Assembly: GCA_903929765.1 (NCBI GenBank)
Contig: CAIYVX010000082.1
Coordinates: 16,974 to 80,973 of the forward strand
DNA: 64,000 nt
From: an uncultured Planctomycetia bacterium
GTDB lineage: Bacteria; Planctomycetota; Phycisphaerae; FEN-1346; JAACEH01
Direction of reading: 5' to 3'
The translations under genes and the position numbers were made by a program. A model generated the notes under the pieces. The model was not told the DNA's origin and did no database searches. It saw nothing but the letters and a program-made list of their open reading frames with translations. Below, piece by piece: positions 5,324 through 50,150 of the stretch (within the stretch, counting starts at the first letter, position 1; every line of letters begins with the position of its first letter).

Positions 5324-7435
5324 TTACTTCAAGCCGTTCGCGATGTCCTCGGCCACGCTCTCCGGCACCGGTGCGTAAACGTGCGGTTCCATGCTGTAGG
5401 AGGCCCGACCCTGGGTCAAACCACGAATCACAGTTGAATATCCAAACATCTCGCCAAGAGGAACTTCTGCATGAATGATTCGCAGATTGTTCCGCATGTC
5501 GGTGTGGGTGATCGTGGCCCGGCGGCTCATCAGGTCGCCCGTCACGTCGCCGAAAAACTCGTTGGGTGTCACGACTTCGACCTTCATCAGCGGTTCCAGC
5601 AGCGTCACCCCGGCGTGTTCCACGGCCGCCTTGAGGGCAATGGACCCGGCCGCCTCGAAGGCCATTTCGGAGGAGTCCACCGGGTGATCCTTGCCGTCCA
5701 CCAGAGAAACCTTGATATCAATAAGCGGATATCCCGAGACGATGCCGCTCTGGGCTGCGGTGCGGACGCCGGCTTCAACGGCCGGGATGTAGTTCCGTTC
5801 GATGGCCCCCTGGCGAATCTCATTGACGAAGGTCACCGTAATGTCTTCGTCCTCGTTCTTGAAGGGTTCGACCACCAACTTGCAGACGGCGAAGGCTCCG
5901 TGGCCGCCGGTCTGGCGAACAAATTTTCCTTCGGCCTGGGCGGCGCTCTTGATGGTTTCGCGATAGGCCACGCGCGGCCGGCCGACGCGCACGTCGAGAT
6001 TAAAGTCGCGCAGCATCCGGTGCTTCAACACCTCCAGGTGCAACTCGCCCATGCCGGCGACGATGGTCTGGCCGGTCTCGGAGTCGCCGAAGAATTTAAA
6101 CGTCGGATCCTCGCGGGCCAGGATGCGCAGCACCTCGCCCAGGCGGTCCTTCTCGGCGCTCGACTGCGGTTCGATCGACATCGAAATTACCGTCTTGGGG
6201 AAGTGCATCTTTTGCAGCAGCACCGGACGCTTCGGGTCGCAGAGCGTGTCGCCGGTGACCGACTCCTTCGGCCCCACGGCGGCGATGATGTCGCCGGCCA
6301 CGGCCTCGTCGACCCGAATCCGCTCGTCGGCGTGCATCCGCCACAGGCGGCTGACGATTTCCTTCTTGTCACGGTTGACGTTCAGAACCCGCGAGCCGGA
6401 CTTCAGCGTCCCCGAGTAGATGCGAATCCAGGTCAGGTCGCCGTGCTGGTCGCTGGCAATCTTGAAGGCCAGCCCGGCAAACGGTTCATTCGGGTCGGGA
6501 TGAAGTTCGACCATCTCCTCTTTTTTCTCTTTGTCTTTGCTCGGCACGTGAGCCTGGTAAACGCCGATGTCGGCCGGACTCGGCAGGTAGGCCACCACCG
6601 CGTCCAGGAGCGGCTGAATATTCCGTTTTTTCAGGGCCGACCCGCAGAGCACGGGGTTGACCCGGCCGAGGATGGTGCCCTTGCGGATGGCCCGGCGAAT
6701 CATCTCGTTGGTGATCGTCTGATGCTCCAGGTAGGCGTGCATCATTTCATCGTCGAACTCGGCCACGTGTTCGATCAGGTGTTCGCGTTCGATGTGGGCG
6801 GTGACGTGCTGCTCCTCGCTGATCTCCGTCTCTTCGAATTTGTTGCCCATTTCGTCCGTGTAGACGTAACCCTTCTGCTCGATGACGTCGATGAACCCGT
6901 TAAAATCGGCTTCCCGGCCCAGGGGCAGAATCACCGGCACGGGATTGGAGTGCAACCGTTCCTTGATGTCGGCCAACACGCGGGCGAAATCGGCCCCCGT
7001 GCGGTCAAGCTTGTTGATGAAAATCAGGCGCGGCACCTTGTAGCGGTCGGCCTGGCGCCAGACCGTCTCGCTCTGGGCCTCGACCCCGGCCACGCCGCAA
7101 AAAACGGTGATCGCTCCGTCCAGCACGCGCAGCGAACGCTCGACCTCGGCCGTAAAATCGACATGGCCCGGCGTATCGATCAGGTTGATCGTGTGGTCGG
7201 CCCACGGGCAGGTTGTGGCCGCAGCGTGAATGGTGATGCCGCGGGCCTGCTCCTCGGGGTCGAAGTCCATGATGGCCGTGCCCTCGTGGACCTCGCCCAT
7301 CTTGTGCGTCAGCCCCGTGTAATAGAGGATCCGCTCCGTAACCGTGGTCTTGCCGGCGTCGATGTGTGCCATGACACCGATGTTGCGCAGTTGCCGCAGA
7401 TCAAACTGAACTTGAGATTCGCCTTTTTCCGTCAT
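5324..7435 (-). CDS. fusA: Translation elongation factor G
   Basis: 703 aa: [24 protein letters not shown]..., with a G domain and EF-G domains II-V throughout. Confidence 0.97.
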
Positions 7436-42273: not shown

Positions 42274-42318
42274 TTCACCCCTCTCCCTTGAGGGGAGAGG
42301 GTAGGGTGAGGGTGTTGC
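42274..42318 (+). repeat. Family C repeat, variant (45 nt)
   Basis: TTCACCCCTCTCCCTTGAGGGGAGAGGGTAGGGTGAGGGTGTTGC. Its exact reverse complement occurs at 48782-48826. Confidence 0.9.
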
Positions 42319-46174: not shown

Positions 46175-46233
46175 GGTTTCCCCGGACGCGACTCGCACGT
46201 CGTCTCTTTACCCCTCTCCCCATAAGGGAGGAC

Positions 46234-46271
46234 GGGTGGCATGGCGGCGTCGTTTGCCGCCATGTTTCGCC
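46234..46271 (+). repeat. Family D hairpin repeat
   Basis: GGGTGGCATGGCGGCgtcgtttGCCGCCATGTTTCGCC, near-identical to 58075-58113. Confidence 0.85.
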
Positions 46272-46300
46272 AGTGCCCGTTCTTCGGGTGCCGCCGTTTC

Positions 46301-46349
46301 TTCACCCCTCTCCCTCGGGAGAGGGTGGCCCGAAGGGCCGGGTGAGGGG
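46301..46349 (+). repeat. Family C repeat
   Basis: TTCACCCCTCTCCCtcGGGAGAGGGTGGCCCgaaGGGCCGGGTGAGGGG. The same element lies inside valS at 56210-56269. Confidence 0.85.
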
Positions 46350-46488
46350 TTAGCTCACCACCTCAAAAACTTCACCAGAACGCCATCATACGCGAGGACA
46401 TGCCCTGCCCGCGCCCTAAGCCCGACCAAAGTATTCCGAATCGCCCCATTTTTCAAGTAAAAACGCTGTGCGTACAGCCTTTGTTGTT

Positions 46489-46514
46489 CGTAGGGACAGG
46501 GCTCTGCCCTGTCC
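46489..46514 (+). repeat. Family F (GTAG-headed) REP
   Basis: CGTAGGGACAGGGCtcTGCCCTGTCC, identical to 63476-63500. Confidence 0.85.
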
Positions 46515-46544
46515 AGCCGTTTCTTTTGCCGTTGCCGCTTCACC

Positions 46545-46595
46545 GTGGCACGGGCTTCCCGCCCGTGAGTCGCAGGGGCATCTTGCCCCTGTGCC
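46545..46595 (+). repeat. REP-B double-hairpin repeat
   Basis: GTGGCACGGGCttcccGCCCGTGAGTCgCAGGGGCatcttGCCCCTGTGCC. About 75 nt including flanks is nearly identical to 61598-61675. Confidence 0.9.
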
Positions 46596-46615
46596 GTTGT
46601 TCTTGCCGTTGCCGC

Positions 46616-46648
46616 GTGTAGGGGCAACCCGTGGGTCGCCCGTTGCTG
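46616..46648 (+). repeat. Family F (GTAG-headed) REP, variant
   Basis: GTGTAGGGGCAACCCgtgGGTCGCCCGTTGCTG: a GTAGGGGC head followed by an imperfect hairpin. Confidence 0.6.
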
Positions 46649-46672
46649 TTGTTTGTTGCTTCTCTCTAGGCC

Positions 46673-46740
46673 CCCGCGCCATCGCCCTCCACTCCGCTCT
46701 CCCCCAGCCGCGAAGCGGCGAAAGTTTTTAGCCGGGCGGC
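46673..46740 (+). repeat. Family I 68-nt direct repeat (copy 1)
   Basis: CCCGCGCCATCGCCCTCCACTCCGCTCTCCCCCAGCCGCgaaGCGGCGAAAGTTTTTAGCCGGGCGGC has 5 mismatches over 68 nt against 46907-46974. Confidence 0.85.
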
Positions 46741-46906
46741 GTCAGCCCCCGGTCCCCGCCGCAAACACATTCTTCTTCTTTTTCTTCTTATTTCTCTTCT
46801 CAGCCGCAGCGCGGCGTCTGATAATAACCACGCGGCGCAAGCCCGTGGTTCCCAACGCGCCGACCCGGCTTTTTTCTTCTTCTTTTTCTTTTCCCAGCCC
46901 CCTCCC

Positions 46907-46974
46907 CCCGCGCCATCCCCCTCCCCTCCGCTCACCCCCAGCCGCGAAGCGGCGAAAGTTATTAGCCGGGTGGC
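46907..46974 (+). repeat. Family I 68-nt direct repeat (copy 2)
   Basis: CCCGCGCCATCCCCCTCCCCTCCGCTCACCCCCAGCCGCgaaGCGGCGAAAGTTATTAGCCGGGTGGC, 234 nt downstream of copy 1. Confidence 0.85.
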
Positions 46975-47167
46975 ATAAGCCAGCCACACCCTGTCCGCGC
47001 AGACATTCACCATCCGCTTTGGCTTGGTTATTAACACATGACAATGTTCATTTTGAGGAGGGCAGGTCGAAGTAAAGGCGGAGCCAGGGTTCAAGGTCTT
47101 CGAGCGCCACGGCCTTGCCTGTAGAGATGAGGAAGGACTTCATGTTCTCGGTGAATCCGTCGCCGTC

Positions 47168-47920
47168 TTAGGAAGCGAGATTCATCTCAATGCCGAATAA
47201 GTTTTTGCCCCGCTCAAACCCGACAGCAAAATCATGCAACTCCCCGACTTCTTCGTATCGGTGAAATCGAAATCGTTCTCGGTACTGTCTGAATGGCGAT
47301 TGACTCATGTAACGCTCGAAAAGATGCTCTTCCTCATCACCCTGCCCAATGATATAGAGACCTGTTTGGAATCGTTTGGGGATTTTTAGCAACCGCAGGA
47401 GCCCGCTTTTCACTTTGGTGCTATGCTCGACTTCGAATGCGTAACGAGGGTAAAGGCCCTCATCGTCCTCGGACAGCCACATTACATCAACGTCTCGCAT
47501 CCTTGAAAGTGGCAAGCCGCTTATGCTGGCCGAGTCATTACGAACTGTGGCAAAAGAATGAATTGGGATTGCACCCATCGAGCGAATGGTCCGGTCAGTC
47601 GCATTGGTGTAGGTTTCATAGCCACATAATCGTCCGATATGAAGAAGCAACCCTTGCTGTTCCCCGTGTGGATCATTTGCGGCTCCATCGACCACAGGAG
47701 GAAGCTGGCCAAACTCAACGAGGCGATATGCCGCCCTTCCCGACGACGAACGAAATGGCTCAAATATCCGGTATTGCCGCACGACGCGACGAACAGTTGC
47801 CTCCCATGTGGCGGTCCGCGGTCGTTGCGGGCTATTCGCCAAGCACTCCGTAAGAGTTTCAAGCGTCGCCTCACCCCCGAGCTGGCGCAAAGCGTCGGCG
47901 ACAATATCTTTCCAAGTCAT
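47168..47920 (-). CDS. Hypothetical protein: N-terminal winged-helix-like domain plus C-terminal PD-(D/E)xK-like nuclease core (putative)
   Basis: 250 aa. The N-terminus MTWKDIVADALRQLGGEATLETLTECL...TVRRVVRQYRIFEPFRSSSGRAAYRLVE resembles Mrr-N/HARE-type wHTH. The C-terminus has DVDVMWLSEDDEGLYPRYAFEVEHSTKVKSGLLRLLKI (D...E-x-E...K spacing of restriction-endonuclease folds). Lies in the low-GC island. Function is inferred from motifs only. Confidence 0.45.
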   Translation of the reverse strand: MTWKDIVADALRQLGGEATLETLTECLANSPQRPRTATWEATVRRVVRQYRIFEPFRSSSGRAAYRLVEFGQLPPVVDGAANDPHGEQQGLLLHIGRLCGYETYTNATDRTIRSMGAIPIHSFATVRNDSASISGLPLSRMRDVDVMWLSEDDEGLYPRYAFEVEHSTKVKSGLLRLLKIPKRFQTGLYIIGQGDEEEHLFERYMSQSPFRQYRERFRFHRYEEVGELHDFAVGFERGKNLFGIEMNLAS

Positions 47921-47922
47921 AT

Positions 47923-48180
47923 TTATGCCCTGCTAGTTTTGGCGCCCGGTTTCAATTTGGTCACAAACCTTTTACCGGCACGGCCTCTTGAAACTGGCTT
48001 TGCGGAAACAACATTGGTCACCAACGTTGGCCCGACAACGGACATACGGGGGCCTTTGCAACAAAAATCAATTATCGACTCTGGTGGGAGGCACTCTACC
48101 CAATCACGAGCATCAGCCTCATCGTCGCACTCAACAACCATCTTAAAAGGAACAGAAAGGTTCACAAGGAATTCCGGCAT
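47923..48180 (-). CDS. Small hypothetical protein (85 aa), first gene of the low-GC island operon
   Basis: ORF 47923..48357. ATG 48180 has AGGAGG 5 nt upstream. MPEFLVNLSVPFKMVVECDDEADARDWVECLPP... has an acidic, 4-Cys N-terminal part and a basic tail. Its stop is 2 nt before the next ATG. Confidence 0.5.
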   Translation of the reverse strand: MPEFLVNLSVPFKMVVECDDEADARDWVECLPPESIIDFCCKGPRMSVVGPTLVTNVVSAKPVSRGRAGKRFVTKLKPGAKTSRA

Positions 48181-48204
48181 TGTATCCTCCTGGAGGGACG
48201 AACT

Positions 48205-48234
48205 ATTATGCACCTCAAAGCTTGCTTGATGCAA
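48205..48234 (-). promoter_or_regulatory. Candidate promoter of the island operon
   Basis: Minus strand reads TTGCAT(48234-48229)-18 nt-CATAAT(48210-48205), with TG immediately upstream. It would give an ~20-nt leader carrying the AGGAGG. Confidence 0.35.
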
Positions 48235-48395
48235 TAGGCAAATGCCAAACCCGCAAGATTTTTCTCCACCCTCAGACAAATGGGCTGGGAAAGAGGTGAT
48301 AATTGAGTGGCCTGAGCCACAACTCTTTCCACCACACCATTGTTTTTTCTCCTTCATTCGGCGACAATATCCCCATTCTCTCGCGGAGGTCTCTT

Positions 48396-48764
48396 ATGTC
48401 CTACGAACTTCTTGTCACCATGGATTTCGGCGCCGCCCATTCCCTGCGGCAATATAAGGGCAAGTGCGAGCGGCTGCACGGCCACAACTGGCACATCGAC
48501 GTTTGCCTCGCCGCCGACGTCCTCAACCCCGACGGCATGGTCATGGACTTCGTCGAGGCCAAGGCCCTCATCCGCGAAATCCTCTCAAGTTACGATCACT
48601 ATCATCTGAACGAGGTGCCGCCCTTCGACCAGATCAACCCCACCAGCGAGAACCTGGCCCGTGTTCTGTCCGAGCGGCTCCAGCCCGGCCTGCCGCCGGG
48701 CGTCCGCGTCGTCCGCGTCACCGCCTGGGAAAGCGATAATTGCGGCGCGACGTTTATTGTGTAA
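48396..48764 (+). CDS. queD: 6-carboxy-5,6,7,8-tetrahydropterin synthase / 6-pyruvoyl-tetrahydropterin synthase family
   Basis: ORF 48303..48764. ATG 48396 (GGAGG upstream) gives MSYELLVTMDFGAAHSLRQYKGKCERLHGHNWHI, carrying the C-x3-HGH QueD/PTPS signature. Confidence 0.8.
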   Translation: MSYELLVTMDFGAAHSLRQYKGKCERLHGHNWHIDVCLAADVLNPDGMVMDFVEAKALIREILSSYDHYHLNEVPPFDQINPTSENLARVLSERLQPGLPPGVRVVRVTAWESDNCGATFIV

Positions 48765-48781
48765 GATGAACGACAAAAGAA

Positions 48782-48826
48782 GCAACACCCTCACCCTACC
48801 CTCTCCCCTCAAGGGAGAGGGGTGAA
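48782..48826 (-). repeat. Family C repeat, variant (inverted copy)
   Basis: GCAACACCCTCACCCTACCCTCTCCCCTCAAGGGAGAGGGGTGAA is the exact reverse complement of 42274-42318. Confidence 0.9.
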
Positions 48827-50150
48827 GAAGAAAAAGAAGAGGCAGGCCGTGACCGAACGAAAAATCCGCATCCAACTCGCCCTCGATTTCGCCGACCTGA
48901 GCCGCGCCCTGGCCGTGGCCCGCGCCGCCGTGCCCGAGGGCATCGACATCGTCGAAGCCGGCACGCCGCTCATCAAGAGCGAGGGTCTTAACGCCGTCCG
49001 CGAGTTGCGCCGCCTCTTTCCCGACCGGCCGATCCTGGCCGACCTCAAGACCGCCGACGCGGGCCGCATCGAAATGGAATGCGCCGCCAAGGCCGGGGCC
49101 ACGATGGCCATCTGCCTCGGCGCCGTCAGCGAATCGACCGTCCAGGAATCCATCGAAGCCGGCCGCAATTACGGCATCGAGGTCGGCGTCGACATGCTCG
49201 GCGTCGCCGATTACGTCGCCCTGGCCAAAAAATGCGAAGCCTGGGGCGCCGCCTTCCTCAACGTCCACCTCCCCATCGACGACCAGATGCGCGGCCTCCA
49301 ATCATTCGACCGCCTCCGCCAGATCGCCGAAGCCGTCTCGATTCCCGTCGCCGCCGCCGGGGGACTTAATTCCGAAAACGTCGTCGACGCCATCGCCGCC
49401 GGCGCTGCCATCGTCATCATCGGCGGCGCGATCACCAAGGCCGCCGACGTGGCCCAGGCCACGAGGGACATTCGCCGCGCGGTGGACACGCGGGCCAAAG
49501 TCGCCACCGAACTTTTCCGCCGCGCCGGCGAGACCGACATCCGCGAAGTCCTCGGCCGCGTCTCGGCCGCCAATTTAAGCGACGGGGCACACCGCCTGCC
49601 CTCGCTCGACGGACTCCGCCCGCTCTGGCCGGGCATCCGCTTTTGCGGCCCGGCCCTGACCGTCCGCACCGTCCCCGGCGATTGGTCGAAGCCCGTCCTG
49701 GCCATCGACCAGGCTGAGCCTGGCGACGTTCTCGTCATCGACGCCGGCGGCCGCCCGCCCGCCGTCTGGGGCGAACTGGCCACACAGAGCGCCATCGTCA
49801 ACAAGCTCTCCGGCGCCGTCATCGACGGGGCCGTCCGCGACACCATGGACATCCGCCGCCTCGAATTCCCGATCTTCTCCCGCTGCGTCTCGGCCAACGC
49901 CGGCGAACCCAAGGGCCTCGGCGAAATCGGCCAGCCGATTTTCCTTTCCGGCCAGCGAATCATGACCGGCGACTGGATTCTCGCCGACGACGACGGCGTC
50001 GTGGTTCTGCCCAAGGCCCGGGCGGTGGAAATGGCCAACCGCGCCCAGGACGTTCTGGAAAAAGAAAACCGCCTTCGCGACGAAATCACCAGCGGCCGCA
50101 GCTCGCTCGGCAAAGTCGCCGAACTTTTGCGCTGGGAGAAAAAATCTTAA
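48822..50150 (+). CDS. Fusion protein: 3-hexulose-6-phosphate synthase-like (OMPdecase/HUMPS fold) plus RraA-like domain
   Basis: The N-terminal half has IQLALDF...IVEAGTPLIK...LADLKTADAG (HPS/KGPDC pattern). The C-terminal half has ...PGDVLVIDAGG...AVWGELATQSA...GAVIDGAVRD (RraA/aldolase pattern). The start may be GTG 48849 instead of GTG 48822. Confidence 0.75.
   Translation: MKKKKKRQAVTERKIRIQLALDFADLSRALAVARAAVPEGIDIVEAGTPLIKSEGLNAVRELRRLFPDRPILADLKTADAGRIEMECAAKAGATMAICLGAVSESTVQESIEAGRNYGIEVGVDMLGVADYVALAKKCEAWGAAFLNVHLPIDDQMRGLQSFDRLRQIAEAVSIPVAAAGGLNSENVVDAIAAGAAIVIIGGAITKAADVAQATRDIRRAVDTRAKVATELFRRAGETDIREVLGRVSAANLSDGAHRLPSLDGLRPLWPGIRFCGPALTVRTVPGDWSKPVLAIDQAEPGDVLVIDAGGRPPAVWGELATQSAIVNKLSGAVIDGAVRDTMDIRRLEFPIFSRCVSANAGEPKGLGEIGQPIFLSGQRIMTGDWILADDDGVVVLPKARAVEMANRAQDVLEKENRLRDEITSGRSSLGKVAELLRWEKKS

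Follow-up and report, generated by a model that had tools for sequence, protein, structure and literature searches.

How can a gene for a type II-like restriction endonuclease persist without a methyltransferase at its side? The question is raised by a stretch of 64,000 nucleotides (here called the window) of contig CAIYVX010000082.1 from an uncultured Planctomycetia bacterium, in which an island of low G+C content holds two minus-strand genes, one for a small protein of 85 amino acids (aa) and one for a nuclease of 250 aa. A type II restriction gene that lacks its methyltransferase is regarded as lethal, and the existence of solitary ones has long been puzzling. A clade with a conserved small protein in the methyltransferase's place, such as the one to which the window nuclease belongs, would be a concrete answer for at least one lineage.

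An initial annotation had described the island as a horizontally acquired, nuclease-based two-gene module that could not be assigned to a named system. The finding is real and this interpretation was largely right: the foreign composition and the occurrence of the pair in varied contexts agree with horizontal acquisition, by profile and fold comparison the large protein falls into a nuclease family and not into a non-nuclease one, and the two genes are paired in six other loci. The remark on naming had to be given up, the nuclease being assignable to the PF27126 NmeDI_C family, with a sister clade that carries methyltransferase-restriction (M-R) operons. The nuclease family is already known; what is new is the conserved pairing with a small protein in the methyltransferase's place. 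In the favoured reading, to which a probability of roughly 0.4 is given, the pair is a two-gene module derived from a restriction-modification (R-M) system, in which the methyltransferase has been replaced by an acidic partner that inhibits the nuclease in a toxin-antitoxin-like or defence arrangement.

A small gene in the place of the methyltransferase

The 250-aa protein is, by sequence, a member of the known PF27126 NmeDI_C family of restriction-endonuclease-like proteins. A search of 5.8 billion proteins returned 332 homologues, nearly all of about 250 aa. The precomputed PF27126 tag stands on the identical protein P0001 and on 120 of 120 homologues among the matches listed. Contig tables give the family as NmeDI_C, a name taken from the characterised type II enzyme R.NmeDI (PMC2095814). 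Gene neighbourhoods were surveyed in 79 loci (numbered with L below) from species representatives of the Genome Taxonomy Database and in further contigs for individual proteins. The closest relatives come mostly from metagenome-assembled genomes (MAGs) of Verrucomicrobiota, and their nucleases are 56-64% identical to that of the window over the full length. An intact PF01555 N6/N4 methyltransferase of 430-560 aa lies directly upstream of the nuclease in L001/L005, L007-L011, L084, L085 and L088, at a spacing of 14 nt in L001, L085 and L088; in L103 the methyltransferase is convergent and lies downstream. In gene content these sister-clade loci correspond to ordinary type II M-R operons; their methyltransferase is CcrM-like at a sub-threshold level only. 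A 99-aa open reading frame (ORF) listed upstream of the L084 nuclease was considered as a second small partner and discarded, as it proved to be the end of an intact methyltransferase of 442 aa divided in two by the gene caller.

The window presents the opposite picture. An iterated hidden Markov model (HMM) search detected no PF01555-like ORF in the 64 kb and none in the flanks even at E = 100, and a motif scan found no convincing [DNS]PP[YFW] or cytosine-5 methyltransferase motif in any window ORF of at least 120 aa. The early remark that no methyltransferase is adjacent was correct, and the linked methyltransferase of a classical type II R-M system is missing from the window. At seven loci (the window, L003, L069, L093, L097, L104 and L105) the small gene precedes the nuclease on the same strand at a distance of 2-190 nt, a conserved, co-directional and adjacent two-gene pairing as in type II toxin-antitoxin systems. 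None of the seven has an intact methyltransferase; L093 and L097 retain only N-terminal (5') stumps. The small gene, in turn, is absent from 10 methyltransferase-linked loci. For this mutual exclusivity Fisher's test over the evaluable loci gives p = 6e-4, a value that treats as independent what are clade-structured, non-independent events. In a neighbour-joining tree the nucleases linked to the small gene cluster together, apart from the methyltransferase-linked clade. The pattern was also put to a prediction test on the three nucleases scoring closest to the small-gene group. L104 and L105 fitted, the former with a 59-aa member of the small family directly upstream and no methyltransferase, the latter with a member directly upstream that is cut by the contig end; L103 has a methyltransferase and lacks the small gene.

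Both ORFs have stayed intact in six of the seven loci despite divergence of the nucleases to 55-67% identity; the nuclease of L069 is frameshifted. In the window, L003 (between pdxJ and creD) and L104 (between MFS and HAD genes) the island consists of the pair alone, with unrelated housekeeping neighbours. The G+C content of the pair is lower than that of the flanks by 4-19 points in L003, L104, L093 and L097 and by 1-3 points in L069, in hosts whose base composition differs widely. Since the pair constitutes the entire island and is lower in G+C than its surroundings in several hosts, it travels as a unit.

The stumps deserve a separate description. In L093-L096, which encode the small protein P0125, the order is methyltransferase stump (180 aa), orf82, small gene and PF27126 nuclease; in L097, a metagenome contig, a stump that ends just after DPPY is followed by the small gene and the nuclease. 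Both stumps (L093 5109-5651, L097 1167-1559) are well preserved. That of L093 is ~75% identical to an intact relative over ~130 aa without a frameshift, which is better than expected of an old pseudogene. The explanation is either selection on the stumps or a swap that was recent or recurrent. The L093 orf82 (82 aa, 5711-5959) was examined as a conserved third gene and discarded, as it is confined to its own contig group, with no counterpart in the window or in any other locus.

Damaged methyltransferases also occur elsewhere in the family, at ~19 loci with truncated or frameshifted genes. In the part of the family at 40-45% identity, 3'-truncated or frameshifted methyltransferase ORFs precede many intact nuclease genes (L012, L015, L021, L022, L029, L032, L039, L043, L046, L049, L050, L060 and L061). 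Several of these ORFs stop with '...EGDLS' immediately in front of the nuclease start, a pattern that resembles nested deletions with a common right end. Decay of the methyltransferase beside an intact nuclease is the reverse of the usual expectation. An 11.9-kb Dehalococcoidia contig (JACWAE010000091.1; L012 and L013) carries two copies of nuclease plus methyltransferase stump, inverted and ~5.4 kb apart. In L066 (DATEQG010000071.1, 5001-6912, a Candidatus Acidoferrum sp. MAG) a family nuclease 42% identical to that of the window is convergent with a PF01555 methyltransferase broken by an in-frame stop codon. Upstream of two sister nucleases without a methyltransferase, in L014 (4653-4964) and L020 (4661-4963), stands a conserved ORF of ~100 aa that differs from the small gene (MxxKxxHFYCLEFPV...) and may be another kind of small partner.

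Features of the two proteins

The small protein belongs to a very rare family. An initial search with the ORF matched nothing but itself; 1.84 billion cluster representatives, scanned exhaustively with HMMER, yielded two true relatives, P0123 and P0124, 36-38% identical over residues 1-59, and a profile search added P0125 as a third. Nine members were found altogether. The 3445-aa eukaryote-type repeat protein P0122 (E 2e-13) was dismissed as an artefact, its score being the sum of 19 individually sub-threshold repeats. The eight full-length members have in common the core M-x-x-F-x-V-x-F-x-x-(S/P)-G-x-I-x-V-(E/D)-C-D-D-x-x-D-A-x-(E/D)-(Y/W/F)-V. At the three codon positions of the family alignment the identity is 0.51/0.60/0.31, and the greater conservation of positions 1 and 2 relative to position 3 argues for selection at the protein level; the 85-aa ORF is a real gene.

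In the window protein an acidic core of ~58 aa (isoelectric point (pI) 4.1, net charge -6) is followed by a basic tail of 27 aa (net +9). Across the family the core is constantly acidic (pI 4.1-4.8) and the tail variable, to the point of being missing in L069, L104 and P0124. The acidic part, the tail and the four Cys residues pointed out in the initial annotation are all present, but the family does not conserve the Cys residues (one member has Gly at the best-conserved of these positions), so that nothing suggests a metal site. The protein gave no Pfam, NCBIfam, PADLOC or PDB sequence match, and it shows neither a known antitoxin or immunity family nor a helix-turn-helix (HTH) signature. Its first hairpin bears a weak resemblance to plant ferredoxin. 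All six members tested weakly match phrog_14649 (best E 0.0015), a phage family of 62 positions with no known function. No relative of the small gene was detected in 2.9 million viral contigs. Carriage by phages was rejected, as viral contigs gave distant matches to the nuclease domain only and GenBank phages gave nothing. The possibility that the small ORF is a degraded methyltransferase was likewise rejected (no core-HMM match at E<=100, -5 bits with a C-extension HMM, BLAST at chance level), and no fusion of small protein and nuclease was seen among 125 proteins.

The nuclease gave no significant match in NCBIfam, PHROG or a Pfam set that lacked the PF27126 model, and PDB sequence searches with profiles of both proteins yielded nothing significant. 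The comparison with known defence systems that had been proposed came out negative: no PADLOC-DB 2.0 component was significantly matched by either protein, the nuclease giving only a weak REase_II match over residues 142-180 (E 0.023) and the small protein none. An AlphaFold2 model built with 69 homologues is confident (pLDDT, the predicted local distance difference test, 90.7; pTM, the predicted template-modelling score, 0.89) and has an N-terminal winged helix and a C-terminal restriction-endonuclease (PD-(D/E)XK) fold. The Mrr-N/HARE-type winged helix proposed initially is thus reproduced at the level of the predicted fold, whereas Pfam Mrr_N and HARE-HTH gave no match.

In an hhalign comparison the nuclease matched, with a probability of 98.8%, a protein of 421 aa from a Deinococcus plasmid that bears the annotation 'type II restriction endonuclease'. 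The match is limited to the C-terminal domain, where the two have the motifs GYE, IDVxW and AFEVEH(S/T)T in common. This protein (L106) and one from a Sphingobium plasmid (L107), both of ~420 aa and similarly annotated, are more distant and have only the NmeDI_C domain in common with the window nuclease. No methyltransferase is listed alongside L106 or L107 in a plasmid gene table that is incomplete.

The residues D-V-D...A-F-E-V-E-H-S-T-K, previously read as a PD-(D/E)xK core, are present in a domain predicted to have the corresponding fold, and the conservation pattern modifies how they are read. Among the 69 homologues D145 and E165 never vary, the conservation of E163 and E102 is at least 90%, and D143 and K169 are variable; for this reason the motif is D-x17-E-x-E and not D...E-x-K. 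It is presumably a BamHI-like variant of PD-(D/E)XK, in which D145, E163 and E165 of the model would be catalytic. The window protein keeps 30 of 30 invariant columns of the 69-sequence alignment (D145 and E165 among them) as well as E163, and D145, E163, E165 and E102 are kept in every nuclease linked to the small protein; the window nuclease is presumed to be catalytically active.

The island and its surroundings

The island stands out by composition. In 300-nt windows a G+C trough of 47-58% extends over ~47050-48400, between flanks of 62-70%, and the two-gene module has 51.4% G+C against 64.8% and 64.7% in the 2.7-kb flanks. The G+C content at third codon positions (GC3) is 0.53 in the nuclease gene and 0.48 in the small ORF, against 0.85 in hom, 0.78 in queD and 0.85 in the gene at 48822-50150. 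The low-GC island of the initial annotation is therefore well founded, with GC3 at ~0.5 against ~0.8, and horizontal acquisition of the module is the best reading of these figures. The island is located between the hom-side repeat tract and the divergent queD (PTPS) gene, and a small contig identical to the window locus has the gene order PTPS / 85 aa / 250 aa. Within +/-10 kb no tRNA gene was found, and no integrase was seen nearby in the window, so integration signals were dropped as evidence of insertion.

The compact operon described earlier is confirmed, with a gap of 2 nt between the stop of the small ORF and the ATG of the nuclease gene (Table 1). A mechanical ORF list gives the small ORF a longer form of 144 aa from an ATG at 48357; the family alignment and the Shine-Dalgarno (SD) sequence favour the start at 48180. 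This SD sequence is as perfect as had been stated, and the small-gene homologues of L003, L069, L091, L092 and L093 likewise have purine-rich SD-like sequences in front of them. The hexamers of the proposed promoter exist as well; as evidence the promoter is weak, because 8 of 12 consensus positions match and a promoter scanner made no call.

Table 1. Coordinates of the two-gene module, its domains and signals in the window, and of small-gene matches at related loci
Feature	Position	Strand	Basis or remark
Nuclease gene, 250 aa + stop	47168..47920	-	ORF; PF27126 'NmeDI_C' family, type II restriction-endonuclease-like
N-terminal winged-helix domain, residues ~1-70, pI 9.8	47711..47920	-	model; presumed DNA-recognition domain
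C-terminal PD-(D/E)XK restriction-endonuclease-fold domain, residues 80-250	47171..47683	-	model
Putative catalytic motif: D145 (47486-47488), E163 (47432-47434), V, E165 (47426-47428)	47426..47488	-	
E102, candidate fourth acidic residue	47615-47617	-	conservation
Small-protein gene, 85 aa + stop	47923..48180	-	rare unnamed family, directly upstream of nuclease lineage
Shine-Dalgarno AGGAGG	48186..48191	-	perfect, 5 nt upstream of the small gene's ATG
Candidate promoter TTGCAT (48229-48234)-18-CATAAT (48205-48210)	48205..48234	-	weak
Compositionally foreign island, ~1.2 kb	47168..48357	.	GC profile, GC3, module against flanks
Small-gene match, L003	5750-5980		HMM
Small-gene match, L069	2105-2284		HMM
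Small-gene match, L093	6001-6237		HMM
Small-gene match, L097	1654-1893		HMM
Small-gene match, L104	2227-2406		HMM
Small-gene match, L105	2-178		HMM

An exact 14-nt direct repeat, TCGGCGACAATATC, occurs at 47895-47908 and 48358-48371. One copy spans codons 5-9 of the nuclease gene and the other lies at the island edge, ~25 nt from the queD start; about 0.03 repeats of this kind are expected by chance in that 3-kb region. It could be a junction left by recombination or duplication. The 39-codon stretch that follows the nuclease stop in frame (47048-47167) exists, but its interpretation as a remnant did not hold: as its GC3 is host-like (0.75) and no counterpart was found in any related locus, it is placed outside the island and rejected as a part of the module.

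The repeat tract beside hom (46200-47050) adjoins the island as had been noted. It contains a match to the Rfam family RF01687 (Acido-Lenti-1 RNA) at 46706-46752 on the minus strand, with 41.8 bits against a gathering score of 37, and a second, weaker copy at 46940-46969 (minus strand, 27.8 bits). Both are enclosed by a 77-nt direct repeat (46671-46747 / 46905-46981, 91% identical), and long polypyrimidine runs (TTCTTCTT...) occupy 46767-46893. Palindromes rich in G+C that resemble repetitive extragenic palindromic (REP) elements, CCCTCTCCC-N5-GGGAGAGGG, are intergenic at 42279-42301 and 48799-48821, where none is expected by chance; related arms are seen at 46205-46230 and 46298-46315.

Possible roles of the small protein and comparison with known systems

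What, then, could take over the protective function of the methyltransferase? In the favoured reading the ancestor would have been a type II M-R operon composed of a beta-class PF01555 methyltransferase and an NmeDI_C nuclease. In the window clade the methyltransferase would have been lost or reduced to a 5' stump, and a small gene for a ~60-aa acidic protein with a variable basic tail would have taken the position directly upstream of the nuclease. The small protein would keep the nuclease harmless to the host by binding it, like an immunity protein or an antitoxin, possibly with an acidic surface placed over the basic DNA-binding domain. Together the two proteins would act as a methylation-independent toxin-antitoxin-like or defence module, able to move into naive genomes as a unit. 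A protective role is favoured because the small gene and an intact methyltransferase are mutually exclusive, because the gene order is antitoxin-like and the spacing tight, because the acidic core (pI 4.1-4.8) and the basic winged helix (pI 9.8) have complementary charges, because the acidic active-site residues are retained and because the pair enters new genomes as a self-contained unit. From these features we infer that the small protein binds and inhibits the nuclease, be it as inhibitor, antitoxin or immunity protein. A fuller version can be put forward tentatively, in which methylation was swapped for protein-based self-protection by a ~60-aa acidic inhibitor, possibly derived from a phage protein like phrog_14649, that restrains an active nuclease in a methylation-free toxin-antitoxin or abortive-infection module, one that could invade genomes in which no matching methylase exists.

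Several observations weigh against replacement by an inhibitor. As the linked nucleases cluster in the tree, a single historical swap followed by linkage is possible, and the Fisher test overstates the independence of the events. The small-family members P0123 and P0124 have no nuclease gene next to them, on contigs of 0.5 kb. Some 31 distant nuclease homologues are solitary, with neither methyltransferase nor small gene and with housekeeping neighbours, ~19 distant nucleases stand beside truncated methyltransferases, and the close relative L006 has neither partner. Because solitary homologues and L006 exist, the nuclease may be tolerable alone and an inhibitor less needed. A protective methyltransferase may also lie unlinked elsewhere in the genome, the search having covered 64 kb.

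Such an unlinked enzyme is central to a rather unlikely alternative, in which the nuclease is methylation-sensitive, a distant methyltransferase protects the host and the small protein regulates nuclease expression in the way of a controller protein, by delaying or limiting expression of the R gene. Separation of this kind is the documented explanation for 57 of 272 solitary restriction genes (PMC3488263), and the basic tail of the window protein could bind nucleic acid; yet three members lack this tail, and the protein has no HTH or other known DNA-binding signature. A methyltransferase-dependent nuclease should, moreover, rarely become a self-contained island in varied hosts, and the only related methyltransferase seen that may exist in this genome, that of L066, is interrupted by a stop codon and belongs to a nuclease just 42% identical. 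Less likely again is that the small protein is an accessory subunit, namely an activator, sensor or specificity factor, for instance one that leaves the nuclease latent until phage infection. Conserved linkage would suit such a subunit, the phrog_14649 matches hint at phage biology, and the survival of many solitary distant homologues suggests that the nuclease may be latent by default. However, the PHROG matches are individually weak, the 2.9 million viral contigs hold no homologue of the small gene, and an accessory role does not account for the fact that the small gene is never found together with an intact methyltransferase.

The locus might also be a decaying remnant that lost its methyltransferase, with a nuclease that is inactive or unexpressed and an upstream ORF without a function of its own. 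Methyltransferase decay beside an intact nuclease is common in the family, the L069 nuclease is frameshifted and inactive solitary restriction genes have been documented (PMC3488263). Against this, two intact ORFs in six of seven loci in spite of the divergence of the nucleases, the signature of protein-level selection on the small gene, the fully kept invariant columns and E163 of the window nuclease and the perfect SD sequence make a remnant improbable. The lowest probability is assigned to the type IV-like option of the initial annotation, according to which the nuclease of the clade is modification-dependent, like Mrr, and needs no methyltransferase. The winged helix joined to a PD-(D/E)XK domain and the lack of an adjacent methyltransferase do recall Mrr; this option is disfavoured because close relatives are methyltransferase-linked: enzymes 56-64% identical have methyltransferase partners and could not, beside them, cut DNA methylated at the same specificity. 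Nor is there a Pfam Mrr_N or Mrr_cat match, and a conserved small partner would be left unexplained.

Should the small protein indeed inhibit the nuclease, as the favoured reading holds, the pair would be an evolutionary bridge between R-M and toxin-antitoxin systems, and a new protein inhibitor of a restriction-type nuclease would have been found in a module that is missed by current defence-system finders. Failing that, the small protein is in any case a newly defined accessory partner for a family of restriction enzymes.

Among known systems, R.NmeDI/M.NmeDI of Neisseria meningitidis (PMC2095814) has the NmeDI_C domain, likewise preceded by a separate N-terminal part, and its R gene follows directly after the M gene in the same orientation, as in the sister clade. 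R.NmeDI differs in its length of 351 aa, its other N-terminal region and its partner M.NmeDI, which recognises 5' RCCGGY 3'. The window nuclease has 250 aa, a 70-aa winged helix and no methyltransferase, and the partner in the sister clade is a beta-class PF01555 N6/N4 enzyme. The specificity, the double-sided cutting and the tetrameric form of NmeDI cannot be transferred to the window protein. The sister-clade M-R operons have a nuclease with the domain architecture and motifs of that of the window; they carry an intact methyltransferase and no small gene, and the window clade shows the opposite. Mrr-type (type IV) enzymes have the same order of winged helix and PD-(D/E)XK domain and no adjacent methyltransferase, but the window nuclease matches neither Pfam Mrr domain and has methyltransferase-linked close relatives.

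Solitary restriction endonucleases such as PacI (Ershova et al., 2012; PMC3488263) likewise have a full-length nuclease gene without a linked methyltransferase, and some relatives of the window nuclease resemble them further in having methyltransferase pseudogenes alongside. The explanations published for solitary genes are that the methyltransferase lies at a distance, that the enzyme is inactive, that its sites are avoided, or that repair or proteolysis intervenes (PMC3488263); none of them features a conserved, dedicated small protein in the methyltransferase's place.

Pairs of a nuclease and its protein inhibitor are the systems to which the window pair can be likened in function, and barnase-barstar and the colicin DNases with their Im proteins are examples. 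The nearest functional analogy is provided by the Tox-REase toxins with their immunity proteins (PMC3482391) and by the Tox-REase-5 toxin-antitoxin system (bioRxiv 10.1101/835710). Tox-REase toxins place a C-terminal toxin domain on a secreted or trafficked protein, whereas the window nuclease has only 250 aa, begins with a winged helix as presumed DNA-recognition domain, carries no trafficking or secretion domain and is of R-M ancestry. Its small protein bears no sequence relation to a known antitoxin or immunity family. The window pair resembles such toxin-antitoxin and immunity pairs in its arrangement, with a small acidic protein encoded beside a co-directional nuclease, at tight spacing and mobile as a unit.

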